Assembly: GCA_934101595.1 (NCBI GenBank)
Contig: CAKORR010000004.1
Location: 99,050-131,049, forward strand
Reading direction: 5' to 3'
Source: an uncultured Bacilli bacterium
GTDB lineage: Bacteria > Bacillota_I > Bacilli_A > RF39 > UBA660
Length of the DNA stretch: 32,000 nt
Part shown: one piece after another, positions 1,545 to 16,405 of the stretch
How positions within the stretch are numbered: position 1 is the stretch's first letter
Layout of the letters: each line of letters starts with the position of its first letter
Notes under the pieces: generated by a model
The model's database searches: none
What the model was told of the DNA's origin: nothing
What the model saw: only the letters and a program-made list of their open reading frames with translations
Translations under genes and position numbers: made by a program

Positions 1545-2847
1545 TGAGATTATAAATTATATAAAAAATAAAAACGTAGCTATTTTAGGTTTTGGCAGAG
1601 AAGGTAAATCTACTTATAAATTTATACGTAAACATTTAAAGGATAAGATGCTTACAGTATTAGATCAAAATAAAAATGCCACGAGTGATATAAATGATGA
1701 TAATTTAATTTTGATTAATGATAATTATTTGGATTATATAGATAAATATGATTTGGTTATTAAAACCCCAGGTATCAGTTTAATAGGGAAAAAATATAAC
1801 ACCGAAATAACTAGTGAAGTGGATTTGCTTACAAGGTTTGTACCGGTGAAATTAATCGGAATAACAGGAACTAAAGGAAAAAGTACGACAAGTAGCTTAA
1901 TTTATACAGTTGTTAGTGATCAGTTAAAAAACACTTTTTATGTAGGAAATATTGGAATACCTATTTTTGACTATATTGAGAAATTTACACCAGATTCAAT
2001 TGTAGTTGCGGAATTGTCGGCTCATCAGCTTAATGATATAAAAAATAGTCCCCATATTGCTATTATTTTAAACTTATTTGAAGAACATTTAGATTATTTT
2101 CATACACTAGATAATTATTACAACGCTAAACTAAATATTTTTAAATATCAAAATAAAAATGACTATGCTCTTTATTACTCTGATAATGAAGAACTTACAA
2201 ATAGGGTAAAAAAAATAAATAGCCTTGCTAAAATGATTCCACTAAACAAAAAAATGCTTTTAAATGATGAGATAAAAATTGGTGATTATACCTACTTTTT
2301 TAATAAGGGACAATACTTGATCGGGGATTATAATAAAATAGATATAATGTTTTCTTTATATGTTGCAAAAATTCTTAACTTAAATTTAAAAAGATGTGAA
2401 GAGGTAATTAGAAATTTTAAGCCTCTTGAACACCGTCTGGAATTAATTAATGGGGGAAATATTAAGTTTTATGATGATACTTTAGCAACAATTCCTGAAG
2501 CCACTTTGAACTCAATTAAAGCTATTAAAGATTTAGAAACCTTGATTGTTGGTGGTAAGGATAGAAATATTGATTATACTAATTTTGTGCATGAGCTTGC
2601 AAATACAAGTGTTAAAAATATTATATGCCAGCCAGATACTGGAAAGTATATTTATGAGAATTTAAAAAACAGTAATAAAAATGTGTATTATGTGGAAGAA
2701 TTGGAAGATGCTGTTATCTTAGCTTATAAAATAACAGGTAAGGATAAATCATGTTTATTATCACCAGCGGCTTCTAGTTATAATAAATATCAAAATTATG
2801 CTGATAAAAGTGCTCATTTTAAAATGTACATCGAAAAATATAAATAA
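1537..2847 (+). CDS. murD: UDP-N-acetylmuramoyl-L-alanine--glutamate ligase (MurD family; D-Glu versus L-Glu specificity not decidable here)
   Basis: N-terminal Rossmann motif VAILGFGREGKS, Mur-ligase P-loop GITGTKGKSTT, 436 aa, sits in a murG/murB context. Confidence 0.9.
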   Translation: MYNEIINYIKNKNVAILGFGREGKSTYKFIRKHLKDKMLTVLDQNKNATSDINDDNLILINDNYLDYIDKYDLVIKTPGISLIGKKYNTEITSEVDLLTRFVPVKLIGITGTKGKSTTSSLIYTVVSDQLKNTFYVGNIGIPIFDYIEKFTPDSIVVAELSAHQLNDIKNSPHIAIILNLFEEHLDYFHTLDNYYNAKLNIFKYQNKNDYALYYSDNEELTNRVKKINSLAKMIPLNKKMLLNDEIKIGDYTYFFNKGQYLIGDYNKIDIMFSLYVAKILNLNLKRCEEVIRNFKPLEHRLELINGGNIKFYDDTLATIPEATLNSIKAIKDLETLIVGGKDRNIDYTNFVHELANTSVKNIICQPDTGKYIYENLKNSNKNVYYVEELEDAVILAYKITGKDKSCLLSPAASSYNKYQNYADKSAHFKMYIEKYK

Positions 2848-2871
2848 TTATTAAATGGATGGAGGAAAAAA

Positions 2872-3951
2872 ATGAATATAATTATTTCTGCGGGTGGAAC
2901 AGGGGGACATATTTATCCAGCTTTATCAATAATTGATGAATTTAAGGAACATGAAAAAGATTTAAATGTTATTTATATTGGTACACATAATAGAATGGAA
3001 AAGGAAATAGTTAAAAATCTTAACATACCATATGTTCCTCTAACAATTTATGGATTATCCAAAACAGATATAATTAGAGATATAAAAAATATATTTTATA
3101 TAAAAAAGGCTAAGAAAAGATGCTTAGAAATTATTGATGAATTTAAACCTGATGTTGTTATTGGTGTTGGTGGCTACGTTACTTATCCGGTTATGTGGGC
3201 TGCTAAAAAAAGAAAGATAAAAACATTTATTCATGAACAAAATAGTGTTCCTGGTAAAAGTAATTTAATGCTTTCTAAAGGAATTGATTTAGTCGGAGTT
3301 TCTTTCAAAAATAGTGAAAAATATTTTAAAAAAGCCAAGAAGGTTGTGTATACTGGTAATCCTTGTGCTAGTAGAGCTAAAAATGCTGCGATAATTAAAA
3401 AAGAATCAATAGGGTTTAAAAAAGATTTGCCTCTTATTACTATTGTTGCTGGATCTTTAGGAAGTAGTACTTTTAACTTTAAAATGAAAGAGTTTTTACT
3501 AACTTGTGATAAAAGATATCAAGTGTTATATATTACGGGGAAAAGTTATTATGAAGAATTTATTAAAGATACCTCATTTGATGAAAATGTTATAGTAAAA
3601 CCATATTTTGATAATCTAACAGGTATAATGAAAGACAGTGATCTGTTTATTTCTCGAGCAGGAGCAGGGGCAATTACTGAAGCGTTGGCATTAGAGTTAC
3701 CTAGTATTTTTATACCAAGCCCATATGTAAGTAATAATCATCAATATTACAATGCCCTGGAAATTAAAAACGCTAAAGCTTGCCTTTTATTAGAAGAAAA
3801 AGATTTAAGCGCTGCGAAAATTAAGAACTTAGTAGAAGATTTGTTGTTTAAAAAAGAAAAATATGAAAAGATAAAAAATAACATAAAAAAAATGCATATA
3901 GATAATAGTGCCGAAAAAATATATAATTATATAAAGGACTTGATAAAATGA
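2872..3951 (+). CDS. murG: Undecaprenyl-PP-MurNAc-pentapeptide UDP-GlcNAc transferase
   Basis: IIISAGGTGGHIYPAL N-terminal G-loop, ISRAGAGAITE, 359 aa. GGAGG RBS upstream. Confidence 0.93.
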   Translation: MNIIISAGGTGGHIYPALSIIDEFKEHEKDLNVIYIGTHNRMEKEIVKNLNIPYVPLTIYGLSKTDIIRDIKNIFYIKKAKKRCLEIIDEFKPDVVIGVGGYVTYPVMWAAKKRKIKTFIHEQNSVPGKSNLMLSKGIDLVGVSFKNSEKYFKKAKKVVYTGNPCASRAKNAAIIKKESIGFKKDLPLITIVAGSLGSSTFNFKMKEFLLTCDKRYQVLYITGKSYYEEFIKDTSFDENVIVKPYFDNLTGIMKDSDLFISRAGAGAITEALALELPSIFIPSPYVSNNHQYYNALEIKNAKACLLLEEKDLSAAKIKNLVEDLLFKKEKYEKIKNNIKKMHIDNSAEKIYNYIKDLIK

Positions 3952-4835
3952 AAGAAGAGTTAAAAAAGTATGGTAATGTTTTAAGTGATGTTTCCCTAAA
4001 AGAATTTAATACTTATAAGTTGGAAAGCTTTAGCAAATATTTAGTTTATCCAAACAGTATCACAGATTTAGTTCAATTAATAAACTATTTAGATAAAGAA
4101 AATATAAAATATTTTATTTTAGGAAATGGCTCCAATGTTATATTGCCATCCAATACTTTTGATGGGGTTGTTATTAAAACAACTGCTTTAAAAGGTGTAA
4201 AAGATTTAGATGATAATAAACTTTATGCCGAAGCAGGAGTAATGCTACCCAAACTTGTTAACGACTCACTTTATTTTGGTTATAAGGGACTTGAATGGGC
4301 TGCCGGAATACCAGGGACTGTCGGAGGAAGCATTGTTGGCAATGCCGGAGCATATAAATCTTGTATATTTGATTATTTATTAAGCGTTACAATTTTAGAA
4401 GGTGGCATAACTAAAATATTAAAAAAAGATGATATTATTTATAGTTATCGTCATACATCCTTAAAGGACGAAAAATGTATTGTATTATCCGCAGTTTTTT
4501 CGCTTGAAAAGGGTAATATGGAAGAGTCAAAGGAACTCATTAAATCTAGATATTTAAGGAGAGTTGAAACTCAGCCATTAGATAAGCCTTCGGCTGGTAG
4601 TGTATTTAGGAATCCTATTGATGAACCGGCAGGTAAAATAATCGAAGATTTAGGATTTAAAGGGACATGTTGTAACGGGGCAAAAGTTAGTGAAAAACAT
4701 GCTAATTTTATTGTTAATTCTGGTAACGCCACTAGCGAAGATGTTATTAGTTTGATTAATGATATAAAAAAATGTGTCAAAGAAAAGAAAAATATAGACT
4801 TAGTTTTAGAACAAGAAATAGTAAGTTGGGAGTAA
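3948..4835 (+). CDS. murB: UDP-N-acetylenolpyruvoylglucosamine reductase
   Basis: FAD-binding motifs ILGNGSNV and GIPGTVGGS, C-terminal PSAGSVFRNP and NFIVN. ATGA overlap with the murG stop. Confidence 0.93.
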   Translation: MKEELKKYGNVLSDVSLKEFNTYKLESFSKYLVYPNSITDLVQLINYLDKENIKYFILGNGSNVILPSNTFDGVVIKTTALKGVKDLDDNKLYAEAGVMLPKLVNDSLYFGYKGLEWAAGIPGTVGGSIVGNAGAYKSCIFDYLLSVTILEGGITKILKKDDIIYSYRHTSLKDEKCIVLSAVFSLEKGNMEESKELIKSRYLRRVETQPLDKPSAGSVFRNPIDEPAGKIIEDLGFKGTCCNGAKVSEKHANFIVNSGNATSEDVISLINDIKKCVKEKKNIDLVLEQEIVSWE

Positions 4836-4838
4836 AAA

Positions 4839-5573
4839 ATGAAAAAAGCAAAAAAGAAACATCGTTTAAAAAGTTTTTTAGTTATATTTTTATTTCTGTA
4901 CCTAATAATAATGTTGGGATATTATTTATTTAAAACACCTATTAAAAATATTTATATTTACGGAAATAAATATGTTAGTGATTTAGAAATTATTGAAACT
5001 GCCGGAATTAAAAATTATCCTTCTTTTTTGCATGTTAAGACAAAGTCGATTAAAAAGAAACTAGAAAAAAATCCGTTTATTACAAAGGCTAGTATCAAAA
5101 AAACTATTTTGGGAAAGGTTACCATAAAAATAGATGAAGCTCATCCTCTTTTTATTTCTAAAAGTGATAATTTAATTTATTTAAGTAATGAAAAAACAGT
5201 TGCTAATAGTGATAAATACTTAGGCCTTCCGATGCTTATTAATTATGTTCCCAAAAATATTTTAAAAGATTTTATAGATTCATTTAAAAATATTGACGAA
5301 AATATTGTTGCTATGATAAATGAAATAGAATATCAAAGAGAAGAAAAAGATGATGTAGTTATTGATGAGACTAGATTCTTACTTAGAATGAATGATACAA
5401 ATACTGTTTATGTAAATACTATCAATTTAAAGAAATTGAATCAATATGCTAAAATATGTGCTACCACAAATGGGGTAAAAGGTATAATCTATTTAAATTC
5501 AAATCGTGATACTATAAGTATAACATCATACGATAGTATAAAAAATGAAAGTAAGGATAAAAGTGAAAATTAA
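4839..5573 (+). CDS. divIB: Cell-division protein DivIB/FtsQ-like (single N-terminal TM plus POTRA)
   Basis: Basic N-terminus, TM segment FLVIFLFLYLIIMLGYYLF, then a POTRA-like stretch IKNIYIYGNKYVSDLEIIETAGI. Sits after murB as in dcw clusters. Confidence 0.7.
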   Translation: MKKAKKKHRLKSFLVIFLFLYLIIMLGYYLFKTPIKNIYIYGNKYVSDLEIIETAGIKNYPSFLHVKTKSIKKKLEKNPFITKASIKKTILGKVTIKIDEAHPLFISKSDNLIYLSNEKTVANSDKYLGLPMLINYVPKNILKDFIDSFKNIDENIVAMINEIEYQREEKDDVVIDETRFLLRMNDTNTVYVNTINLKKLNQYAKICATTNGVKGIIYLNSNRDTISITSYDSIKNESKDKSEN

Positions 5574-6165
5574 TTATAATGAAGTTTTAAAAAAAACCAT
5601 TTCTTCTTTGGATCATAAGCCAACACTATTATTACACAGCTGTTGTGGACCTTGCTCAACTGAGGTTATTGATGTTTTGAAAGATAATTTTCTTATAACT
5701 GTATTATATTATAATCCTAATATAGAACCAGAAAGTGAATATTTAAAAAGAAAAGAAGAGCAAATACGCTTCTTAAAAATGGTTAATATTCCTCTTTTAG
5801 ATATAGGATATAATAATTTTGAATTTAAAAGAATAGCCAAGGGCTTAGAAAAAGAAAAAGAAGGAAAGAAACGTTGTGTGTTATGTATTCATAATCGACT
5901 AAGCAAAACAAAGGAAATGGCCTTAGCTCATAAATTCGAGTATTTTGGAACGACTCTAACTGTTAGTCCTCATAAAAACAGCCAAATTATTAATAATTTG
6001 GGAAGAGCTTTAGCGGATGATAATGTTAAATTTTTATTTAGCGATTTTAAGAAAGAAAATGGTTATTTAAAAAGTGTTTTATTCGCTAAAAAATATAATT
6101 TGTATAGACAAAACTATTGTGGTTGTTTATATGCGAAAGATAATAATCTACCTGATGATTTTTAA
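5545..6165 (+). CDS. queH: Epoxyqueuosine reductase QueH (DUF208 family)
   Basis: LLLHSCCGPCS, CVLC and NYCGC cysteine motifs typical of QueH. The start is ambiguous: ATG 5545 overlaps divIB by 29 nt, while in-frame GTG 5563 has an AAGGA RBS at 5553-5557 and may be the true start. Confidence 0.85.
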   Translation: MKVRIKVKINYNEVLKKTISSLDHKPTLLLHSCCGPCSTEVIDVLKDNFLITVLYYNPNIEPESEYLKRKEEQIRFLKMVNIPLLDIGYNNFEFKRIAKGLEKEKEGKKRCVLCIHNRLSKTKEMALAHKFEYFGTTLTVSPHKNSQIINNLGRALADDNVKFLFSDFKKENGYLKSVLFAKKYNLYRQNYCGCLYAKDNNLPDDF

Positions 6166-6184
6166 TTTACAAAGAAACGTAAAT

Positions 6185-6206
6185 ATATGCGAAAGCATAT
6201 TTTTTT
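6185..6206 (+). terminator. Rho-independent terminator after queH
   Basis: atatgc(6185-6190)-gaaa-gcatat(6195-6200) followed by T6 (6201-6206). Confidence 0.6.
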
Positions 6207-6209
6207 CTT

Positions 6210-6239
6210 TTGACAAAATGCTCCGGGGGGGGGTATAGT
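6210..6239 (+). promoter_or_regulatory. Promoter of the surface-protein gene, with a homopolymeric G tract in the spacer
   Basis: TTGACA (6210-6215), 18-nt spacer (6216-6233), TATAGT (6234-6239). The last 9 nt of the spacer are all G. RBS AAAGAGG at 6248-6254, ATG at 6264. Confidence 0.5.
6225..6233. repeat. G9 homopolymer (simple sequence repeat)
   Basis: Read directly: ctcc-ggggggggg-tatagt. It stands out in a very AT-rich intergenic region. Confidence 0.95.
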
Positions 6240-6263
6240 TAAAATAGAAAGAGGTAGAGTTAT

Positions 6264-7757
6264 ATGAAACACTTAAAAAAATTGCTAGTACTTATAATGG
6301 CTTTAATATCATTTAGTATAAGTGCAAGTGCTAAGGAAGAATTTACTATCGATACGAAAAAGCTTACTGGTTTATCAGAAAGTAAAGATTACAAGTATTT
6401 AGCAATGGATAATTTTAGAGGATACGTTGAGGATGATATTTATCCTTTAAACAAGTATGTTAAGGATGTTGGCTTTTTGTTTGATGGACCCTTCTATAAT
6501 GATAAAGACTCTGATTATACTTTATATGGTATTGACGAAAATGGCAAAATAACTAAAACATATAAAATTAAAAGTGATTATTTAGGGTCAGAAAAAAAGA
6601 AGTTTGTTGAGCTAAAACGTGGAAATGATTCGTCGATGTGCTACATCCAAAAATGCACTAAGATAGGAGATAATATAACTTGTAAAGTTGATGCTTCATC
6701 ATTATTATTTGATTATGATAAATCAAAAGATCTAAACCAAAATTCTTCTGGAAGTGTGTTGATTGAGGACCCTTTATGGGGACACTATATTAATTATGAA
6801 AAGCAAAAAGGATTATATACTTTTATAGGAACTTTTGATGGAGTTTTAAAGAAAGCTGTATACTCAGAAGATGGTACTTTATTATTAGGACCTGTTAAAG
6901 AAAGTGATTTAAAAATAACTGGCTATGGTGGTGGCAGTTACGCTGTTAAAACCGAAAAAGATAATGACACAATATATAAGTTTGCTTTAAGTAATGGAAC
7001 TAGCGAAGAATTGTCTTTGGCTAAAGTAAAAGAATGGACAAAAGCTGTAACTGTAGAATCTATAACACCATATGTTGCAAGCGAGAACTTAGCTTACTAT
7101 ATAGTTGTTACGGGAAATGGAACATATATTATAACTAAAGATGGAATGGCTAGCCAAAGCACATGGAAGAAAGATATTTTACTAAAGTATAATGGTGAAG
7201 ATATTTATGTATTAGAAGATGACAAAAGATATGATTTTAATCATTCGGAAATAGCAAGTACATTGATAAGAAAAACCAATGATTCCAAATTAAAAGTTTT
7301 GGAAGACGAGAAAGATATAATCGTTAATTATGATGGCAAAGAAGTCTTAAAGAAAAGTAAAAAAGACATGTCTGATAAAGAGTTTTACCTAAGGTATTTA
7401 GGAAATATTGATGATAATCATTATTTTATTTCTATTACCCCAGTCGAAGATGATACTAATTTTGAAACTCGTGAAAATGTTAACGAATCATTCATGTTAG
7501 TTTTAAATAAAAAAACTATTAAAGAAGAAGAGCCAAAAAAGGATGATAATAAACCAATAACTTGTAAAGAGGTTAATGGTATATATTATGATACTAAAGG
7601 AAATAAGGTAAGTAAAAAGGATTATAAGGCCTTATGTGGTGCTGTAAAGCCAGTAGATACTGGTTATGTAGTTCCAGCTTTATCTCTAATGATTCTAGGC
7701 TGTTTATTCCTATTTACTAAGAGACATAAAAAGCTAAATAAAATAGAACATATTTAA
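6264..7757 (+). CDS. Secreted, C-terminally membrane-anchored surface protein of unknown function
   Basis: Signal peptide MKHLKKLLVLIMALISFSISASA. C-terminal hydrophobic segment VVPALSLMILGCLFLF followed by the basic tail TKRHKK. No recognisable catalytic motif. Confidence 0.75.
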   Translation: MKHLKKLLVLIMALISFSISASAKEEFTIDTKKLTGLSESKDYKYLAMDNFRGYVEDDIYPLNKYVKDVGFLFDGPFYNDKDSDYTLYGIDENGKITKTYKIKSDYLGSEKKKFVELKRGNDSSMCYIQKCTKIGDNITCKVDASSLLFDYDKSKDLNQNSSGSVLIEDPLWGHYINYEKQKGLYTFIGTFDGVLKKAVYSEDGTLLLGPVKESDLKITGYGGGSYAVKTEKDNDTIYKFALSNGTSEELSLAKVKEWTKAVTVESITPYVASENLAYYIVVTGNGTYIITKDGMASQSTWKKDILLKYNGEDIYVLEDDKRYDFNHSEIASTLIRKTNDSKLKVLEDEKDIIVNYDGKEVLKKSKKDMSDKEFYLRYLGNIDDNHYFISITPVEDDTNFETRENVNESFMLVLNKKTIKEEEPKKDDNKPITCKEVNGIYYDTKGNKVSKKDYKALCGAVKPVDTGYVVPALSLMILGCLFLFTKRHKKLNKIEHI

Positions 7758-7801
7758 GAGAGAAGAAAGATATATTTCTTTTCTTTTTGTAAAGGAGCAA
7801 T

Positions 7802-9040
7802 ATGAAAAAAATAAAATATTTAATATTTATATTATTAATGGTTGTGGCTAATACTGCGTATGTAAAAGCCTATGAAAAGGATAATAGTGGATGTATTATT
7901 TCTTATGATATGTTTAGGGATAAGCCAGTTTTGATTGATAGTGAAAACTATTACTTTCTTAAATGTAATAAGGACAATCTTCAAGAAAAACTTAATAATA
8001 ATGAGATTATGGTTAGTGATTTAAACTTAGACAAAAATGATTTAACAAAGTTTTCTAAAAAATTATATGATATGATTTATGAAACCCTAGATAATTATTT
8101 TTCACTTTACAGTGGCGATGATGAATTGATTAATGTTTTAAATGTTATGATTAATCCTGGAAAAAGTAATAAAGATTTTTCAGTTGTTATTAATTTTGCA
8201 AATACAAATGATGAGGGATTTACTAGTCCTGATCCTAAATATAGTATAAGCAAAATGCAACTTAATGTTGTGGATGGTGAGTATTTAGAATATGATAAGG
8301 ATAAAACTAGTAATAATAAGTATGCTTATCAAATTCAATATGCTTTTTTTAGAAATATATTAAATCGGGTTACGAATGAATACTTTGAAATTGATAGTAA
8401 TGTTTGCTCTCAAGATTATTCTAATGAAGATAATTCTTATGAAAAAAATGGCTTTTATTTGACAAATGATGATTCTTCGGATCAATATTACTTTAAAATA
8501 AATCTAAATAAAATAACTGTAAATACCACCACAGATATCTATCGTTATTGCAAATATATAAATAATCTTCCTCTTAGTATTGATAGTAAGTCAAAATATA
8601 GTTGTCTTTATTATGAATGCTCTTTCTTTCTAGATAACAAAGAGTTTCATATGGCTTTTGATAAGGATACTAAAGAAATTTATTTAGAAAAAGAAGAAGG
8701 CACATTAGATATTTTTGATTTGACTGATAAAGCTGCTATAAATATGCTTGTAAAAAATTATCAAGAAGTAAATAATTTGCCTGATAGCTTTTATGAGGCA
8801 TATTTGAACGCTTATTCAGCTGGGTTTACTCTTAAGGATAATCATATGGGGTTCAGCGATAATAATAAAATTTTTAAAATTAAAATACTTGATGAAGTTA
8901 TTATTCCTTCTATAAAAAAGGAAGATAATAATATAAATTCAATGTCGGAGGTTATCATAATCGGTGCTTGCGTATTAATTTTATTCACGTCTATACTTTT
9001 TATTTTAAAAAAATCGAAAGAGAATAAGGAGGAAAAATGA
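7802..9040 (+). CDS. Type-I membrane-anchored surface protein, paralog family A (copy 1)
   Basis: Signal peptide (..ANTAYVKA|YEKDNSGC) and a C-terminal TM plus basic tail (VIIIGACVLILFTSILFILKKSK). Shares the motifs KDNSGC, YY(Y)F..C.K(D/N)N, VVDGEYL.Y and FKINLNK with the next gene. Confidence 0.8.
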   Translation: MKKIKYLIFILLMVVANTAYVKAYEKDNSGCIISYDMFRDKPVLIDSENYYFLKCNKDNLQEKLNNNEIMVSDLNLDKNDLTKFSKKLYDMIYETLDNYFSLYSGDDELINVLNVMINPGKSNKDFSVVINFANTNDEGFTSPDPKYSISKMQLNVVDGEYLEYDKDKTSNNKYAYQIQYAFFRNILNRVTNEYFEIDSNVCSQDYSNEDNSYEKNGFYLTNDDSSDQYYFKINLNKITVNTTTDIYRYCKYINNLPLSIDSKSKYSCLYYECSFFLDNKEFHMAFDKDTKEIYLEKEEGTLDIFDLTDKAAINMLVKNYQEVNNLPDSFYEAYLNAYSAGFTLKDNHMGFSDNNKIFKIKILDEVIIPSIKKEDNNINSMSEVIIIGACVLILFTSILFILKKSKENKEEK

Positions 9041-10356
9041 AAAAGAATATTAAATACATAATACTAATATTTTTAATGATGATAGTATTTAATGATCCCG
9101 TTTATGCATCAATTAAAGATAATTCTGGCTGCTATAAAGTTCATCAACTTAATTCCATATTTTCTTCTACAAATTACTATAGAACTAATTTTTACGTCGA
9201 TGATGATTATTACTATTTTGTTTCTTGTGACAAAAACAATAAAATTAAATCATTAGAAGATAAATTAAATGATGGCTCATTATCTATTGATAGTCTAGCA
9301 AAATATAGTATTACTTATATAAAAATTGCGTCAGATACCATGGAAAATGTAAAAAATATACTTGAAAATATCATGATACCAGAAATAGATTCCCATGTTT
9401 ATGGTGATTATAGCCAAATTTTAAGTGGGATTTCCATGACTATGTTTGATGTAGATACTCCAAAAGATTTCTCAATTAAAATTGATTTTGTGCTAGATAA
9501 CCTAAGTAATAGTATTACTTTTAGAGTTGTGGATGGTGAATATCTAAAATACTTAAGTGCGGTCAAAACAAGTAAGAATGCTTCTTTTGTAATAGAAAAA
9601 ATTTATTTAAATATTTTAAATTCTATTGCTTGGAAAAGTGGCTATACTAGTAATGAGGGTGCAGTAGTTTATTCTTTAAAAAATAAAAACAGTTACACTT
9701 ATTCTGCAAATGGTTTTGAGATAGGCTCAGAAGAGTCATTTAAAATAAATTTAAATAAAGTTGATTTTTCAAATAATTTTGGTAGTGAGGAATATCAAGA
9801 AAAAATTAGCTTTTTATACAGATTTATGAGTTATGCTGTTGCTGATTATCGCTCTTTATACAGATTTATGAGTTATGCTGATTATTGCTCTTTGGACGAA
9901 TTAAAATGTCAATTTTATAACGATTTAGGAGATAATATATATACAATTGACTTTAATAATAATAAAATACACGGCTATTCAAATAATTTGGACATAAATA
10001 AAGAAAATGAAAAATTAGTAAGAAATATAATTAATAAATTTGTATATGTATATAGTTTCCGTGATTATAGTTTCCTTGAAGATGGCACAACAAGAAACTT
10101 TATTGATTTTACTACGACAAATTTAAAAGACTATAATTTCAAAAAAAATGGTATTGAGTATAGAGAGGTTGATAAAAATAAAAAAGAAACCTATTCATTT
10201 TATTTTAATTTTAACAATGTCTCTTTAAATATAAGCAATGATGATTATGAGATAAGTAATTTTAATTTAAGAGATATAATTATAATAGGTGTAATTGCAT
10301 CTTGTTTATTAATATCTACTATAATATTAATATTGAAACGTAAGAAAAGCAAATAA
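9037..10356 (+). CDS. Type-I membrane-anchored surface protein, paralog family A (copy 2)
   Basis: ATGA overlap with the previous gene. Signal peptide (..NDPVYA|SIKDNSGC), shared motifs as above, C-terminal TM IIIIGVIASCLLISTIILIL plus KRKKSK. Confidence 0.8.
   Translation: MKKNIKYIILIFLMMIVFNDPVYASIKDNSGCYKVHQLNSIFSSTNYYRTNFYVDDDYYYFVSCDKNNKIKSLEDKLNDGSLSIDSLAKYSITYIKIASDTMENVKNILENIMIPEIDSHVYGDYSQILSGISMTMFDVDTPKDFSIKIDFVLDNLSNSITFRVVDGEYLKYLSAVKTSKNASFVIEKIYLNILNSIAWKSGYTSNEGAVVYSLKNKNSYTYSANGFEIGSEESFKINLNKVDFSNNFGSEEYQEKISFLYRFMSYAVADYRSLYRFMSYADYCSLDELKCQFYNDLGDNIYTIDFNNNKIHGYSNNLDINKENEKLVRNIINKFVYVYSFRDYSFLEDGTTRNFIDFTTTNLKDYNFKKNGIEYREVDKNKKETYSFYFNFNNVSLNISNDDYEISNFNLRDIIIIGVIASCLLISTIILILKRKKSK
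9809..9889 (+). repeat. In-frame tandem duplication (42 nt then about 39 nt) inside the surface-protein gene
   Basis: gctttttatacagatttatgagttatgctgttgctgattatc (9809-9850) is followed by gctctttatacagatttatgagttatgctg---attattgctc (9851-9889). The protein reads SFLYRFMSYAVADYR / SLYRFMSYADYCS. Confidence 0.9.
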
Positions 10357-10362
10357 GAATAT

Positions 10363-10415
10363 AAGCAGGAAAGAGTAGTATTTTAATCAAAATAATACAA
10401 TTTCTTGCTTTTATT
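10363..10415 (+). terminator. Long imperfect hairpin plus U-rich tail; probable terminator of the surface-protein operon
   Basis: aagcaggaaa (10363-10372) pairs with tttcttgctt (10401-10410), 10 bp with one G-U. There is an inner tatttt/aaaata stem, followed by ttatt. Confidence 0.45.
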
Positions 10416-10442
10416 ATGCTCAAAATAAGATATTAAATATAA

Positions 10443-10470
10443 TTGAAAAAAAGAAAATATGTGCTAGAAT
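10443..10470 (+). promoter_or_regulatory. Promoter of ATPase paralog A
   Basis: TTGAAA (10443-10448), 16-nt spacer ending in TGc (extended -10), TAGAAT (10465-10470). GAGGTG RBS at 10478-10483, ATG at 10489. Confidence 0.55.
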
Positions 10471-10488
10471 ATAGCTCGAGGTGTTTTA

Positions 10489-12378
10489 ATGGGGGATCAG
10501 GGATTAACTTTATTGTCTGAAGGACAAATTTGGGGAAATGATAGTGAACCCCAATTAGAAGTAATTAGAAAATATGGCGTAAGAGCTGCATTTACCGATT
10601 TATGTGCTTTAACAGGAGGCCATATGTATGACGATACCTGTTTAAATGTTAATGAAGATAACACTTTAGAAGGAAGAAGCGGTTGGTTTTGGACTAAGAC
10701 TTGCAAGGAAAATTGTGTTTGTGTTGTTGTCAAAAATGGCACCAAAAGCACTAGAAATAGTTATTCGAGTGGTTGCGCAGTTAGGCCAATATTACAATCT
10801 TCCCAAATATTTTCTCGAATTACGCAAAACAGAGTAAGGGGATACAATGGAACAGAAGAAGTAGAATATGGGGAATATCCTCAAAATGTTCCAGACTTCA
10901 AAAAGCAAAATGCACTATGGGCAGAATATAATAGGGGAATGAGTAAAACCGGTAGAAGTTATACATTCAACTCAACAAAGTTTGATGGTAAAAAAACCGA
11001 GATCAATATAGATACATATGCCGAGTATGAATTTCAAGGAAAAAAATATATTCTTGTAAAAGCTAATTTTTATTCTTCTGTTTTTGAATGCGTTTTATCT
11101 AATGGCATCAAATATAAAAAAGATGATTATGTCTGGGTAGAAGTATCACCAGTTAAGTGGCTTATAGATGATAATACAGGAATTTTAATTTCAAAAAAAG
11201 GGCTTGTTTCTGGAGTGACGTTTCTTGATAAAAAGAAACAATATAAAGGAAACTTTAGCAAAACCAAAATGAAAGATTATCTTGATAACTACATGTTTCA
11301 TGATTTAACGCAAAACATATCACCTATTCAAGAAGAAAATTTAGAGGGGCAATTAAAGGAAGAGAAAAACGTCTATAATTTTAATATGAATAAAGTAAGT
11401 GAAGAAGAAATTATAAGAGGAGCAATAGAAAGTGGTGTGGCAGTATTCTTGCATGGACCATCTAGTGAAGGTAAATCAGCAAGGGTAAAACAAATAGATC
11501 CAACTTGTGAAATTATTTATTTAAGAAATGCAACACCGGATAGTTTAAACGGGAAAAGCGTGTATAATGCAAGTACCGGAGAAATGATTGATGTTAAACC
11601 ATCATGGCTTAAAAAACTTGAAGCTAAATGTGAACAAGAGCCAGAAAGACTTCATGTATTATTTTTAGATGAAATAACTAATGCTCTACCTAGTATACAA
11701 GGAATGGCATTTAATATAGTCTTGAATGGAGAAGTAAATGGCATTTGGAAATTGCCAGAAAACGCTAGAATTGTAGCAGCAGGAAATGATATGAAAGATT
11801 CATTAGCTGCAAATCAATTGGCAGAACCATTGTTTAATAGATTTGCACATGTATATATTAAAACAACAACTGAAAGTTGGTTAAAGTGGGCCAGTGAAAA
11901 TAATATACATCCAGCAATTTATTCATATATTGCTTATAAGAATGGAGAAACACTCCGAAGTAAATATGATGGTGAATATCCTAATGCTGATCCGAGAAAG
12001 TGGGAAATGGCTTCTAAAATGCTCTATAAAACCGGGAGGCCAGAAATGTTAAGGGCATTAGTAGGTGAAGATATAACAAGGGAATTTGTACAATTTTATA
12101 ATCAAAGAGTAATAACATTAGATGATGTAATAAATGGAAATTATAATGATAAAGATGTACAGGGATTAAATACCGCTGAAAGATATGCTACAACCATGGG
12201 ATTATCTTGTGTTAGCGAAGAAAATTTAGAAGTAGTAAGGGATTTTGCGAATATACTAGGCAAAGAATTTAAGACAGTTTTTGATTCTTTATGGACACAT
12301 GGCGATGAAAAAAGGTTAGAAAGACTTGCCGAAGCAAAACTTGCTGAAATGCAAAAAGGCGTTTCAAGAAAGCTATGA
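10489..12378 (+). CDS. MoxR-like AAA+ ATPase with a roughly 300-aa variable N-terminal domain (paralog A)
   Basis: Walker A GPSSEGKS (11455-11478), Walker B HVLFLDEITNA (MoxR-like DEIxxA), sensor-1 IVAAGN, LAEPLFNRF (compare MoxR LPEAQLDRF). The N-terminus carries LLSEGQ..RAA.TD....GWFWTKT....AVRPIL and VWVEVSPVKWLID..GIL(I/V)SKKGL, which resembles the DUF6273-type module (from memory). Confidence 0.85.
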   Translation: MGDQGLTLLSEGQIWGNDSEPQLEVIRKYGVRAAFTDLCALTGGHMYDDTCLNVNEDNTLEGRSGWFWTKTCKENCVCVVVKNGTKSTRNSYSSGCAVRPILQSSQIFSRITQNRVRGYNGTEEVEYGEYPQNVPDFKKQNALWAEYNRGMSKTGRSYTFNSTKFDGKKTEINIDTYAEYEFQGKKYILVKANFYSSVFECVLSNGIKYKKDDYVWVEVSPVKWLIDDNTGILISKKGLVSGVTFLDKKKQYKGNFSKTKMKDYLDNYMFHDLTQNISPIQEENLEGQLKEEKNVYNFNMNKVSEEEIIRGAIESGVAVFLHGPSSEGKSARVKQIDPTCEIIYLRNATPDSLNGKSVYNASTGEMIDVKPSWLKKLEAKCEQEPERLHVLFLDEITNALPSIQGMAFNIVLNGEVNGIWKLPENARIVAAGNDMKDSLAANQLAEPLFNRFAHVYIKTTTESWLKWASENNIHPAIYSYIAYKNGETLRSKYDGEYPNADPRKWEMASKMLYKTGRPEMLRALVGEDITREFVQFYNQRVITLDDVINGNYNDKDVQGLNTAERYATTMGLSCVSEENLEVVRDFANILGKEFKTVFDSLWTHGDEKRLERLAEAKLAEMQKGVSRKL

Positions 12379-12479
12379 AAGATAAAAGAGAAATGTTTTT
12401 ATCATATATTAAAGCTAATGTGATTGATAAAATTGATTTGATTTCTAAAAAAAATAAGAATATAAGCAGGAAAGAGTAG
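12375..12479 (+). pseudogene. Truncated, internally deleted remnant of the 130-aa AAA-like gene, left at the duplication junction
   Basis: MKDKREMFLSYIKANV|IDKIDLISKK matches codons 1-16 and about 73-82 of the intact gene at 14476. A 168-nt in-frame deletion (equivalent to 14523-14690) is flanked by gt microhomology. The frame then reads into duplicated intergenic sequence and stops at TAG 12477-12479. Confidence 0.75.
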
Positions 12480-12516
12480 TATTTTAATCAAAATAATACA
12501 ATTTCTTGCTTTTATT
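12464..12516 (+). terminator. Duplicated copy of the 10363-10415 hairpin; would insulate paralog A from paralog B
   Basis: Sequence identical to 10363-10415 at an offset of 2101. Confidence 0.4.
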
Positions 12517-12543
12517 ATGCTCAAAATAAGATATTAAATATAA

Positions 12544-12571
12544 TTGAAAAAAAGAAAATATGTGCTAGAAT
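12544..12571 (+). promoter_or_regulatory. Promoter of ATPase paralog B and downstream genes
   Basis: Identical copy of 10443-10470: TTGAAA, 16 nt, TGcTAGAAT. Confidence 0.55.
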
Positions 12572-12589
12572 ATAGCTCGAGGTGTTTTA

Positions 12590-14479
12590 ATGGGGGATCA
12601 GGGATTAACTTTATTGTCTGAAGGACAAATTTGGGGAAATGATAGTGAACCCCAATTAGAAGTAATAAAAAAATACGGCGTAAGAGCTGCAGTCACGGAT
12701 CTATGTATTTTAACTGGTTGTTTTTTATTTGAAAATACTGAAACTGGTAGAACTGGTTTGTTTTGGACTAAATCTGATGCTGGTGATAGTGATGTCTATT
12801 CAGTTGTTGAGAATGGTTATAAAAGCATCATATGTAGTTTTGCACGCCGTGGTGCAGTTAGGCCAATATTACGATCTTCTGAAATATCTTCTCAAATTAC
12901 ACAAAACAGAGTAAGGGGATACAATGGAACAGAAGAAGTAGAATATGGGGAGTATCCTCAAAATGCTGCGGATTCAAGAATGCAAAATATACTAGAGTTA
13001 GAATATAATAGGGGAATGTATAAAACAGGAAGAAGTTACACATTTAATTCTATGAAATATGATGACTATAGTACAGGATTTAAACCTGTAACTTATGAAG
13101 AATATGAATATCAAGGAAAAAAATATATTCGTATAAAAGCTAACTTTCAAACCCCTGAAAAATATAAACTATCCAATGGTATTGAATACGAAATTGATGA
13201 CTATGTCTGGGTGGAAGTGTCACCAGTTAAGTGGCTTATAGATGAAGATACAGGAATTTTAGTTTCAAAAAAAGGTTTACTTTCTGGTATAAGATTTGAT
13301 GGTACTAATTATAAAGGTGATTTTGATAGAACAGAAATGAAAAAATACCTTGATAACTACATGCTTCGAGATTTATCTCAAATTATAACATATGCTAGTG
13401 TTCAAGATATGGCCCCAGAAGAAAAAGCTCAATTTGAAAAAAAACAAAAAGAAGCTGAAATAAGAAGAAATCCTTATGGTTTTAAATTTGAACAAGTAAG
13501 CGAAGAAGAAATTATAAGAGGAGCAATAGAAAGTGGTGTGGCAGTATTCTTGCATGGACCATCTAGTGAAGGTAAATCAGCAAGAGTAAAACAAATAGAT
13601 CCAACTTGTGAAATAATATACCTTCGTAATGCAACACCAGATAGTTTAAATGGAAAGAGTGTGTATAATAGTGCAACAGGTGAGATGATAGATATTAAAC
13701 CAAGTTGGCTTAAAAAAGTAGAAGAAAAGTGTGAAAATGGACCAGATAGATTTCATGTAGTATTTTTTGATGAAATAACAAATGCATTACCAAGTATTCA
13801 AGGTATAGCATTTAATATAGTTTTAGATAGAGAAGTAAATGGTATTTGGAAACTACCAGAAAACGCTAGAATTGTAGCAGCAGGAAATGATATGAAAGAG
13901 TCATTAGCTGCCAATCAATTGGCAGAACCATTGTTCAATAGATTTGCACATGTATATATTAAAACAACAACTGAAAGTTGGTTAAAGTGGGCCAGTGAAA
14001 ATAATATACATCCAGCAATTTATTCATACATTGCTTATAAGAATGGAAAAACACTACGAAGTAAATATGATGGTGAATATCCAAATGCTGATCCTAGAAA
14101 ATGGGAAATGGCATCTAAAATGCTTTATAAAACCGGTAGTCCAGAAATGTTAAGGGCATTAGTAGGTGAAGATATAACAAGAGAATTTGTAAAATTTTGT
14201 AATCAAAAAGTAATAACATTAGATGATGTAATAAATGGAAATTATAATGATAAGGATATACAGGAATTAAATACCGCTGAAAGATATGCCACAATCATGG
14301 GATTATCTTGTGTTAGCGAAGAAAATTTAGAAGTAGTAAGGGATTTTGCAAATATACTAGGCAAAGAATTTAAAACAATTTTTGATTCTTTATGGACACA
14401 TGGTGATGAAAAAAGGTTAGAAAGACTTGCCGAAGCAAAACTTGCTGAAATGCAAAAAGGAGTTTCAAGAAAGCTATGA
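12590..14479 (+). CDS. MoxR-like AAA+ ATPase with a variable N-terminal domain (paralog B)
   Basis: Same 629-aa architecture as paralog A. Walker A at 13556-13579, VVFFDEITNA, IVAAGN, LAEPLFNRF. The C-terminal half is nearly identical to A at protein level; the N-terminal half is diverged in patches with indels. Confidence 0.85.
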   Translation: MGDQGLTLLSEGQIWGNDSEPQLEVIKKYGVRAAVTDLCILTGCFLFENTETGRTGLFWTKSDAGDSDVYSVVENGYKSIICSFARRGAVRPILRSSEISSQITQNRVRGYNGTEEVEYGEYPQNAADSRMQNILELEYNRGMYKTGRSYTFNSMKYDDYSTGFKPVTYEEYEYQGKKYIRIKANFQTPEKYKLSNGIEYEIDDYVWVEVSPVKWLIDEDTGILVSKKGLLSGIRFDGTNYKGDFDRTEMKKYLDNYMLRDLSQIITYASVQDMAPEEKAQFEKKQKEAEIRRNPYGFKFEQVSEEEIIRGAIESGVAVFLHGPSSEGKSARVKQIDPTCEIIYLRNATPDSLNGKSVYNSATGEMIDIKPSWLKKVEEKCENGPDRFHVVFFDEITNALPSIQGIAFNIVLDREVNGIWKLPENARIVAAGNDMKESLAANQLAEPLFNRFAHVYIKTTTESWLKWASENNIHPAIYSYIAYKNGKTLRSKYDGEYPNADPRKWEMASKMLYKTGSPEMLRALVGEDITREFVKFCNQKVITLDDVINGNYNDKDIQELNTAERYATIMGLSCVSEENLEVVRDFANILGKEFKTIFDSLWTHGDEKRLERLAEAKLAEMQKGVSRKL

Positions 14480-14868
14480 AAGATAAAAGAGAACTGCTTT
14501 TATCATATATTAAAGCTAATGTTGCACCAATATTAGTAGATTTTATATCTGGTGGAGATTTGAATGGTGCAGTTGTAGTACCAGCTAGTGTTGATGTTAA
14601 AGAATTAAATGGTCATTATGATGGAGCGGACTTTATGCCTCCTAAATGGCTTAATGAAATATTAAGTACAAATGCTAGTAAAATATTAGTGATTGATAAA
14701 ATTGATTCGATTTCTAAAAAAGAGCAATTAAAGTTTTGTGAATTGTTAGAGCATCGAAAAATATCTACATTTGAATTACCTGAAAATTGTATAATTATTG
14801 TTACTGCAAATGAAATAAATAAAGATAAAATAAGTGAAGAAATATTTTCGTTAGTTGTGCGAATTTGA
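14476..14868 (+). CDS. 130-aa degenerate AAA-core paralog (pseudo-ATPase: no Walker A Lys, no Walker B Glu, no Arg finger)
   Basis: ATGA overlap with paralog B. It aligns by eye to the ATPase core: APILVDFISGGDLNGA vs VAVFLHGPSSEGKSA; PPKWL vs KPSWL; ILVIDKIDS vs VLFLDEITN; ELPENCIIIVTAN vs KLPENARIVAAGN. Confidence 0.7.
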   Translation: MKDKRELLLSYIKANVAPILVDFISGGDLNGAVVVPASVDVKELNGHYDGADFMPPKWLNEILSTNASKILVIDKIDSISKKEQLKFCELLEHRKISTFELPENCIIIVTANEINKDKISEEIFSLVVRI

Positions 14869-14878
14869 GGTGTATTTT

Positions 14879-16405
14879 ATGAAATATGATATAACAGTAT
14901 TAAAAAGAAAAATGCTTGTTAAATATCCTTTTTTTGGGAGTGTAGTAGCAAGTGTAGATTATAAAGAAAACGAGGATATTCCAACCGCAGGCACAGATGG
15001 AGAAACAATTTACTATAATCCTAAATATTTAGAAAGTTTAAGTGTTGAAGAACAAACTTTTATATTTGCTCATGAAGTATGTCATATTGCATTTAATCAT
15101 ATCTTAAGAAGTGAAGGCAAAGATCCAGAGTTATGGAATATTGCTACAGATGGTGTTATTAATCAGTTTTTAAAACGAGACGGATTAAAAATGACTCTGG
15201 GTGGTGTTGATATGGCAGAAGCTATTAATTACGATGCTGAACAGTTATATGACAAACTATTACAAGAAAAACAACAAAGACAACAACAAAATGGACAAGG
15301 TAATAGTCAAAGCGAACAAGGTAATCATCAACAAAATCAACAACAAAGCAGTGGTAGTAGTCAAGGCGAAAATGGTCAACAACAATCTCAATCACAACAG
15401 CAAACTGGCGATTCACAAAATCAAGAAGACCAGAAACAAGATAGTAAAGCAGGACAAAGTGGAGATGAACAGCAACAATCTCAACAACAAAATAGTTCTA
15501 ATAGTGGAAATTCACAAGAAGAAGATAAATCAAAGCAAGATGTTGGCCATGATACTCACAGTATGTGGGAGAAAGCAGTTAAAAAGCACAAGGAGCAGCA
15601 AGAAAAATCTGATAAAAAAGAGAGCTTATTAGATAAACTTTTAGGAAAAGATACAAAAGAAAAAGAAACAACTGAACTTGAAAAGAAACAGGAAGAACTT
15701 GAAAGTATGGGAGAAAAAGATGCTTTTAAAAAGAATCTTGAAATAAAAAAGAAACAACTGGAAGACTTAAAAGAAGAAATATCTAAAGAAGCTTCGCAGG
15801 CAGGCATATCAACGAATAGAGATATTAGAACAGTTAATGATATAGGTACTGCTAAACCACTAATTGATTGGAGATATATTTTAAAAGAATCTATTATGTA
15901 TGATGTTGATTGGTCATATAAAAATGCTACATTAGAAGATGGAGTTGTTACTGCTAATTTAGAAGAACAACCAATGCCGGAAACTGAAATTGTTCTTGAT
16001 ACAAGTGGCTCAGTAAATGAAGTATTATTAAATAACTTTTTAAGGGAATGTAAGAATATATTACAACATACTAAATTAAAAGTAGGATGTTTTGACACAG
16101 AATTTTATGGATTTCATGAAATTAGAACAGAAGAAGATATAGAAAATATGAGATTTGAAGGTGGTGGAGGAACTGATTTTGATGTTGCTGTAGGTGCTTT
16201 TTCAAGACGAGTTCTAAATAAAATAATTTTTACTGATGGTGAAGCTCCAATGCCAGTTATGTCACTTGATGCAACCTGGATAGTTTTTGGTAGTAATAGA
16301 ATTAATCCATTAGGAGGAAACGTATTTTATATAGATAATGTAACACTCGAAAAATTAAATAACAGTGAAACGACTAGCAAATCAAAAAAAAGAATAAAAA
16401 ACTAA
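14879..16405 (+). CDS. Zn-metallopeptidase-like (HExxH) plus VWA/MIDAS protein, DUF2201-type architecture, with a long Q-rich and K/E-rich linker
   Basis: HEVCH at 15071-15085. VWA MIDAS elements LDTSGS (15998-16012), GGGGTDF and IIFTDGEAP. The start is taken as ATG 14879 (GAGGTG RBS 14867-14872) rather than the ORF-track TTG at 14855. Confidence 0.85.
   Translation: MKYDITVLKRKMLVKYPFFGSVVASVDYKENEDIPTAGTDGETIYYNPKYLESLSVEEQTFIFAHEVCHIAFNHILRSEGKDPELWNIATDGVINQFLKRDGLKMTLGGVDMAEAINYDAEQLYDKLLQEKQQRQQQNGQGNSQSEQGNHQQNQQQSSGSSQGENGQQQSQSQQQTGDSQNQEDQKQDSKAGQSGDEQQQSQQQNSSNSGNSQEEDKSKQDVGHDTHSMWEKAVKKHKEQQEKSDKKESLLDKLLGKDTKEKETTELEKKQEELESMGEKDAFKKNLEIKKKQLEDLKEEISKEASQAGISTNRDIRTVNDIGTAKPLIDWRYILKESIMYDVDWSYKNATLEDGVVTANLEEQPMPETEIVLDTSGSVNEVLLNNFLRECKNILQHTKLKVGCFDTEFYGFHEIRTEEDIENMRFEGGGGTDFDVAVGAFSRRVLNKIIFTDGEAPMPVMSLDATWIVFGSNRINPLGGNVFYIDNVTLEKLNNSETTSKSKKRIKN

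Follow-up and report, generated by a model that had tools for sequence, protein, structure and literature searches.

A length-variable poly-G tract in the promoter spacer of a surface-protein gene: a candidate phase-variation switch in an uncultured gut Bacilli lineage

We analysed 32,000 nucleotides of DNA (the window) from an uncultured human-gut Bacilli bacterium of the RF39 lineage (contig CAKORR010000004.1, positions 99,050 to 131,049, assembly GCA_934101595.1). At 6225-6233 of the window, a run of nine G's lies between the -35 hexamer TTGACA and the -10 hexamer TATAGT, directly upstream of a gene (6264-7757) predicted to encode a 497-amino-acid (aa) surface protein. The original prediction regarded this run as a candidate phase-variation switch. 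This is supported by our finding that the run ranges from G7 to G11 across 11 assemblies of the species, with both hexamers invariant and the tract often being the sole insertion or deletion (indel) in kilobases of alignment. We consider it probable that the G run is a hypermutable promoter-spacer repeat that switches the surface-protein gene, in the manner of the porA, tp0126 and vlp systems.

All elements of the promoter region are on the + strand. The -35 hexamer, a perfect consensus, occupies 6210-6215 and the -10 hexamer 6234-6239. The 18-nt spacer between them (6216-6233, AAATGCTCCGGGGGGGGG) consists of a fixed 5' part, AAATGCTCC, followed by the pure G9 tract, which adjoins the -10 hexamer. 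Direct reading confirmed the predicted hexamers, spacer and tract, coordinates included. A ribosome binding site (RBS), AAAGAGG, is read at 6248-6254, and the open reading frame (ORF) of the 497-aa protein starts at ATG 6264. The promoter had been placed 25 nt upstream of the start codon; its position just before the gene stands, and the distance is corrected to 24 nt as counted from the -10 hexamer. Judging by promoter geometry, transcription would start at ~6246-6247, 7 nt past the -10 hexamer, with a very short leader of ~17 nt.

Conspecific contigs (labels beginning with L) were retrieved through exact matches to four proteins of the window: FtsQ-like, QueH, MurB and the 497-aa protein. 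They come from independent samples and are 97.6-100% identical to the window. The tract is G7 in L097 (11x coverage), G8 in L088 and L093, G9 in the window, L090 and L091, G10 in L083 (21x), L084, L085 and L098, and G11 in L087. The spacer is 16-20 nt long across these 11 independent assemblies, and the variation is confined to the G run. Over 3681 bp, L087 shows no mismatch to the window, and the sole difference is G11 versus G9. L088, compared over 3.7 kb, has G8 plus one single-nucleotide polymorphism (SNP), the tract being the sole indel, while L083 carries 65 SNPs over 5931 bp and one indel, which is the G tract. Within a near-clonal group (0-1 SNP over 1.4-2.9 kb), the window has G9, L087 G11, and both L088 and L093 G8. 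As near-clonal contigs differ in tract length, the tract appears to change much faster than point mutations accumulate. G10 is common to three contigs of one SNP clade. Among 20 control homopolymers at 1839-10380 (A or T runs of at least 7, and G5), one intergenic T-run varies, in one contig. Invariance of the tract among related genomes had been named as the outcome that would speak against a switch, and these genomes clearly depart from it.

Contig ends tell of the same site. Three of the five Logan contigs that reach it break exactly at the tract: L001 and L002 start with exactly nine G's, and L086 ends with them. A de Bruijn graph breaks at such a tract if k-mers with C-G9 and with G-G9 are both present. 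The breaks at G9 fit the coexistence of G9 and longer alleles within a sample, a fit that is suggestive only.

Several points weigh against reading the tract as a switch. The contig breaks may equally stem from coverage loss at G runs. All lengths are the consensus of short-read assemblies, some at low coverage (L088 2.6x, L084 4.8x); errors are commonest in G homopolymers, and the A/T runs used as controls, at 7-8 nt, are shorter. Five of the 11 assemblies have 19-20-nt spacers, which fits 'mostly OFF' and 'length does not matter' equally. The G's beside the -10 hexamer place a G at -14, half of the extended -10 TG, and this could make the promoter less dependent on the -35 spacing. Finally, the tract in a second species, that of L050, is mostly G8 in the ENA assemblies, hence less diverse.

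The quality of the reads bears directly on one alternative, namely that the tract is fixed and that sequencing or assembly errors in a G homopolymer produced the differences in length. Short-read indel error peaks in long G runs, several of the contigs have coverage of 2.6-5.3x, and G runs interrupt Logan contigs in two species, perhaps through coverage loss. It is difficult to reconcile such artefacts with five lengths found over three assembler types, among them G10 at 21x (L083) and G7 at 11x (L097), with the G10 common to three contigs of one SNP clade, or with G8, G9 and G11 in the near-clonal clade. Moreover, the L050 species is reproducibly G8 in four ENA contigs, so the G runs are not randomly scrambled. 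In our view the artefact explanation has very little chance of being right.

A tract-free counterpart of the promoter was found in a sister species (L096, L101-L103), to which the distant homologs P0002 and P0003 of the 497-aa protein led. There, upstream of one surface-protein gene, lie the hairpin CATATGCGAAATCATATG, TTGACA, an AT-rich spacer of 17 nt, TAC(A/T)CT and the leader GAAAATAGAGAGAGG. The gene that follows this module is a homolog and lies elsewhere in the genome. In the alignment the -35 hexamer is identical, TATAGT aligns with TAC(A/T)CT at an equal distance from the leader and the RBS, and the 3' half of the spacer is replaced by G's in the window's species relative to the sister species. 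The sister promoter has no G run and no length difference in the four assemblies. This comparison supports TTGACA/TATAGT as a real promoter, and it shows the length variation to be a property of the G run and not of the assemblies.

Upstream of the promoter, an AT-rich hairpin (ATATGC-GAAA-GCATAT) with a T-run at 6185-6206 on the + strand is the probable intrinsic terminator of queH. Folding of 6170-6212 gave -8.7 kcal/mol (z = -2.7), and the alignment shows the hairpin to be kept in all strains and in the sister species. It was missed by the terminator scan because the stem holds just two G-C pairs. The hairpin probably isolates the downstream promoter from upstream transcription. Since the hairpin and T-run occupy 6185-6206, the promoter can lie only within 6208-6263. 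There, the TTGACA/TATAGT pair is the top promoter-like site of the consensus scan in 5000-13000 (11 of 12 matches), and the + strand of the window contains just one further site of the form TTGACA-N16-18-TAnnnT. At the level of motifs, the homopolymer lies between the -35 and -10 elements of a sigma-70-type promoter. Elsewhere in the window, candidate promoters show spacers of 16-17 nt, and an extended -10 TG is frequent among them.

The same region allows us to weigh whether transcription of the gene instead reads through from queH or from a promoter further upstream, in which case the hexamers would be chance matches in AT-rich DNA and the G run part of a transcribed leader. The genes are all co-oriented and tightly packed, and promoter-like matches in the consensus scan are no commoner than in shuffled sequence (60 versus 54 expected), as such a reading would have it. 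Yet the hairpin and T-run separate queH from the hexamers, a site of this score and form is rare in the 32 kb, and the layout of hairpin, -35, -10 and leader is kept upstream of the homologous gene elsewhere in the sister species. A leader or other RNA element known to Rfam was rejected as a candidate: the window has no Rfam match that reaches the gathering threshold, and 6100-6350 has none even at E <= 1. We find read-through hardly credible. The predicted placement of the tract in a promoter spacer is backed both by the tract-free homologous promoter of the sister species and by the lineage-wide adjacency of G runs to -10 hexamers described below.

The T-run at 6200-6209, directly 5' of the -35 hexamer, is polymorphic among strains (TTTTTTTCTT, TATTTTTTTT, TATTTTTCTT, and one additional T in L085) and is the sole other length-variable homopolymer found. 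It is also the T-tract of the queH terminator and lies at the UP-element position of the promoter.

The tract is exceptional in its own sequence context. GC content is ~28% in the window, the GC skew is strongly positive, and every long ORF lies on the + strand. The G9 at 6225-6233 is the sole G or C run of at least 6 in the 32 kb; the spectrum of G runs comprises 25 of G4, five of G5, none of G6-G8 and one G9, whereas 0.004-0.007 runs of at least 9 are expected.

Among the GTDB species representatives, which do not include the window's own species, the best QueH match has 72% identity. The 80 relatives are metagenome-assembled genomes of uncultured gut 'Bacilli' or 'Tenericutes', for example Mycoplasma sp. 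CAG:776, Firmicutes bacterium CAG:460 and Clostridium sp. CAG:609, which we take to belong to the order RF39. A survey of the lineage covered 1.06 Mb, made up of the window and 80 RF39-like loci, and counted 235 runs of G5, 17 of G6, eight of G7 and ten of G8 or longer. Extrapolated geometrically from G5 and G6, the counts of G7 and of G8 or longer would be far lower than those seen. A TAnnnT hexamer follows at offset 0 or 1 after all ten runs of at least 8, compared with a background of 8.5% and with 13 of the 235 G5 runs. All ten long runs are on the sense strand; this bias is uninformative because the G5 runs share the strand (209 of 235), reflecting GC skew. Several of the relatives' tracts have TTGACA or TTGACT at 17-19 nt, and the six G-tract promoters with a perfect TTGACA (window, L003, L017 and three in L094) all have 18 nt. 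No recognisable -35 at 15-21 nt was found for the tracts of L040, L043, L054 and L094 at 7301.

Where the downstream genes are clear, they encode proteins with an N-terminal signal or anchor sequence. G-tract promoters precede the genes of two paralogous BspA-type leucine-rich repeat (LRR) proteins with near-identical leaders in L003, a protein with Big_2 and a Listeria-Bacteroides repeat in L017, a DUF285 protein in L050 and two paralogs in L078. In the closest species (L003), the orthologous site just past queH reads TTGACA-AAA-G15-TATGCT, again with an 18-nt spacer. RF39-like gut Bacilli are uncultured, genome-reduced bacteria that live as commensals in humans and animals. It is an even chance, in our estimation, whether they have, across the lineage, a 'phasome' of poly-G promoter switches at multiple loci, all built to one fixed design. 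By this we mean a sense-strand G run directly against the -10 hexamer, often with TTGACA at 18 nt in total, in front of genes for diverse surface-protein families (BspA-LRR, Big_2, DUF285 and orphan sortase-signal proteins). If true, it would amount to Mycoplasma- or Campylobacter-style contingency behaviour in non-pathogenic gut bacteria.

Length variation in the relatives could be followed in two species. That of L003 is represented by two extra contigs only, both with G9 and a different promoter cassette. At L003 4549-4591 we read TTGACAAAA-G15-TATGCT and at ~1840-1870 of L104/L105 TTGACTTTTGATGTCT-G9-TATGAT, with a BspA-LRR gene downstream each time. The post-queH promoter of L104/L105 resembles the second G-tract promoter of L003 at 10795, which suggests that promoter-plus-gene cassettes may be exchanged between paralogous loci in this species. 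For the L050 species, a partly informative test of hypervariability, the ENA contigs gave G8 four times and one interrupted GGGGGAG, and five of five Logan contigs are broken at or near the tract, one ending at G7 and four 0-14 nt before it. The interrupted tract (L111, ~2309-2315) replaces, in one strain, the G8 upstream of the DUF285 gene and is a possible 'locked' allele.

The position of the long G runs bears on whether the tract matters for expression at all. It could be hypermutable yet neutral, a slippage hotspot without regulatory effect, with transcription proceeding mainly via the -10 hexamer with its G at -14 or via another signal. The commonness of 19-20-nt spacers (5 of 11 assemblies) is compatible with neutrality, and so is the G at -14 supplied by the run, many promoter candidates in the window using an extended -10 TG. 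However, a neutral G9 is unlikely to arise or persist in a 28% GC genome that has no other G run longer than 5. In addition, the perfect -35 hexamer is invariant in all strains, and ten of ten long G runs in relatives stand against a -10-like hexamer (8.5% background), mostly upstream of surface-protein genes. This adjacency argues for selection on position. Neutrality of the tract is thus, in our judgement, unlikely.

As every relative's tract abuts the -10 hexamer and never lies midway along the spacer or at its 5' end, the main mechanistic rival to a spacing switch is a tract that modulates transcription by other means, such as contact of RNA polymerase or a regulator upstream of the -10 hexamer, DNA structure, or open-complex formation. 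The four tracts with no recognisable -35 at 15-21 nt (L040, L043, L054 and L094 at 7301) are consistent with it, as is the 18 nt, not 17, of all six perfect-TTGACA promoters. Precedents for tracts that act without a change of spacing are opc, where regulator and -35 overlap, and tprL of Treponema pallidum, where the tract overlaps the -10 region (PMC7864442). In the window, however, the tract lies wholly between two near-perfect hexamers, so a change of its length must alter the spacing; the sister-species promoter has an ordinary 17-nt AT-rich spacer in the same frame; and no regulator site is evident. An overlap with a hexamer of the opc or tprL type was rejected, the tract ending where TATAGT begins and lying 9 nt from the -35 hexamer. 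We consider action by such means alone rather improbable, although contacts at -14 to -17 may add an effect beside that of spacing.

According to the spacing switch that we favour, a sigma-A (sigma-70-type) promoter with a hypermutable G repeat in its spacer would drive the surface-protein gene. Slipped-strand mispairing at replication would add or remove G's, and each G would alter how far apart the fixed hexamers, TTGACA at -35 and TATAGT at -10, lie, as well as their rotational phase. The promoter strength would change in steps, being probably high at 16-18 nt (G7-G9) and low or off at 19-20 nt (G10-G11). The outcome would be a stochastic, heritable and reversible variation in the display of the surface protein from cell to cell. 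We infer the dependence of transcription on length, the ON length, and the rate and reversibility of switching. Which length is best is uncertain. Judged by the 16-17-nt promoter candidates of the window, G7-G8 would be optimal, G9 weaker and G10-G11 poor, but all six G-tract promoters with a perfect TTGACA have 18 nt. One may speculate that this length reflects a different helical twist of G-tract DNA.

Two other types of switch were rejected. An intragenic frameshift switch does not fit the gene, as the ORF at 6264-7757 opens at the first start codon after a stop and the tract ends 30 nt upstream in non-coding DNA. For an inverton, we found only weak, imperfect, AT-rich inverted repeats, and the orientation is the same in 11 of 11 assemblies.

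The proposed mechanism has well-studied counterparts. The poly-G tract between the hexamers of the sigma-70-type promoter of Neisseria meningitidis porA is a switch in which slippage alters the spacer and hence the amount of a surface protein (PMC7864442). T. pallidum tp0126, an OmpW homolog, likewise has a poly-G between -35 and -10, with ~7-11 G's that vary within and between isolates, transcription being best at 17 nt and the target again a surface protein (PMC7864442). The window differs from porA in its host, which is Gram-positive-type, low-GC and uncultured; in the tract, which abuts the -10 hexamer rather than sitting within the spacer; and in the protein, which is unrelated and has a signal peptide and a sortase-signal-like C-terminal anchor. 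Compared with tp0126, the setting is also different: T. pallidum has 52.8% GC and G runs are commoner there, whereas the window, at 28% GC, has its G9 as an isolated case. Fragment-length analysis and green fluorescent protein (GFP) reporters have validated the T. pallidum tracts, while the tract of the window is a candidate.

A further counterpart, beside other simple-sequence-repeat promoter switches of Mollicutes, is that of Mycoplasma hyorhinis, a genome-reduced, low-GC relative of Bacilli, in which the vlp promoters contain a spacer poly-A upstream of the members of a surface-protein family. L003 and L078, relatives of the window organism, are similar in having several paralogous surface-protein genes, each with its own tract promoter. 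In contrast to vlp, the tract of the window is poly-G and not poly-A, the organism has peptidoglycan genes (murB, murG, ftsQ), and the proteins are not lipoproteins with repetitive C-termini. In Campylobacter jejuni and Helicobacter, long G/C runs (G8-G13) are strongly over-represented and hypermutable in an AT-rich genome and form a multi-locus 'phasome'. Their tracts are mostly intragenic and act by translational frameshift, unlike those of the window and its relatives, which stand against a -10-like hexamer upstream of genes. The vlp system is cited in PMC11868660 (refs 20-21).

The mechanism is well known, and what is new is the host, an uncultured and genome-reduced gut commensal lineage, together with the apparently lineage-wide design. 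Phase variation in gut commensals is known mostly as invertible promoters. To our knowledge, simple-sequence contingency loci have been described almost solely in pathogens, and our literature search found no report of phase variation in the RF39-like lineage. The locus gives strain-level evidence of a hypermutable promoter tract in an uncultured gut lineage, with a design that recurs in relatives. If confirmed, the switch would point to fluctuating selection on surface proteins, for example by immunoglobulin A (IgA), phage or host attachment, and it would explain assembly breaks and 'strain heterogeneity' at such tracts. Tract length would then provide a simple readout of the expression state from existing metagenomes for organisms that cannot be grown.

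The putatively controlled gene, at 6264-7757 on the + strand, is predicted to encode an exported, C-terminally anchored surface protein of 497 aa, in line with the signal peptide and transmembrane (TM) anchor that had been proposed for it. The N-terminal signal peptide (aa 1-23), MKHLKKLLVLIMALISFSISASA, is followed by KEE. A conserved Cys-loop module at aa ~433-458 precedes the sortase-signal-like motif PVDTG (aa 463-467, nt 7650-7664), the hydrophobic TM segment (aa 468-485) and the basic tail KRHKK, a combination expected of a surface-exposed product. A Pfam search with the protein gave no match. Its homologs form one cluster among 5.8 billion proteins, and 1.8 billion representatives yielded 27 weak matches, most of them in the last 70 residues, so that the ectodomain appears to be nearly an orphan. 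An AlphaFold2 model built on a 7-sequence alignment consists mostly of beta strands; its pLDDT of 57 means low confidence, and it was set aside.

The matches share the C-terminal module C-x-V-[DN]-G-x-Y-Y-D-x-x-G-N-x-V-x-K-x-x-Y-x-x-x-C-G. This Cys-loop module is followed by the motif [NV]P[KHD][TS]G (PVDTG in the 497-aa protein), a hydrophobic segment and a K-rich tail, and the whole may resemble a sortase sorting signal. In many proteins (P0002-P0016) the module (window 7560-7757, aa ~433-497) is joined to unrelated ectodomains, with a K-rich tail that ends in KI. P0002 pairs it with an N-terminal domain homologous to a pair of 412-aa and 439-aa proteins of the window (see below). Since the module occurs on varied ectodomains, the surface proteins seem to be modular, and they look like sortase substrates.

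Upstream of the tract are murG, murB, a gene for an FtsQ-type POTRA protein and queH (5545-6165). QueH is a 206-aa ORF, for which the gene caller takes a later GTG start to give a 200-aa form. In L084/L099 (ERZ15609890 NODE_5173, 4.8x) queH is split into ORFs of 88 aa and 95 aa, and a 14-bp insertion relative to the window shortens murG; the broken genes are either strain pseudogenes or assembly errors.

Downstream of the 497-aa gene, two overlapping genes at 7802-10356 on the + strand encode proteins of 412 aa and 439 aa; both carry a signal peptide and, at the C-terminus, a TM anchor. The two had been described as two paralogs downstream, which is true of their relation to each other (28% identity, E = 4e-14); sequence comparison detected no paralogy of either with the 497-aa protein. 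Directly past the stop codon of the latter, a 13-bp hairpin with a U-rich 3' arm (7756-7787, + strand, -12.4 kcal/mol, z = -2.4) is a possible, perhaps partial, terminator. The promoter scan found no promoter-like site in the 44-nt gap at 7758-7801 (best 6 of 12). The pair is possibly, but not necessarily, expressed from the G-tract promoter by co-transcription with the 497-aa gene.

This pair belongs to an accessory island at ~7769-16385 that is absent from L083 and L002, where rpsB lies directly after the 497-aa gene. Besides the 412/439-aa surface-protein pair, the island (7769-16385) encodes two paralogs of 629 aa and includes ORFs of 130 aa and 516 aa, and its flanks share ~13 nt of A/G-rich microhomology at the junction. 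The 629-aa paralogs are in tandem (10489-12378 and 12590-14479); their N-terminal region weakly resembles DUF6273, and the C-terminal half is like an AAA-type ATPase (sub-threshold Sigma54_activat match). Each is preceded by an identical promoter-like site, TTGAAA-16-TAGAAT, with an extended -10 TG. DUF6273-like C-termini ('..VRPV.YL..D..') occur also in proteins downstream of the G-tract promoters of L040, L054 and L078.

A metagenome scan with a 22-mer gave L094 (JGI Ga0123356_10011586) as the sole match, an unrelated contig of ~52% GC with genes for a dUTPase, a radical-SAM-like protein and orphans. It shares with the window the exact 24-nt string TTGACAAAATGCTCC+G9. L094 has four G9/G10 runs in 8.6 kb (5530-5615, 7301-7310, 7962-7970), three of which follow the TTGACA-N9-G9-TAnnnT design. 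Two of these three are arranged back-to-back and divergently; the genes downstream of them encode a protein with a signal peptide and a small TM protein. The likeness of L094 to the window is either convergence or a coincidence in a very large collection.

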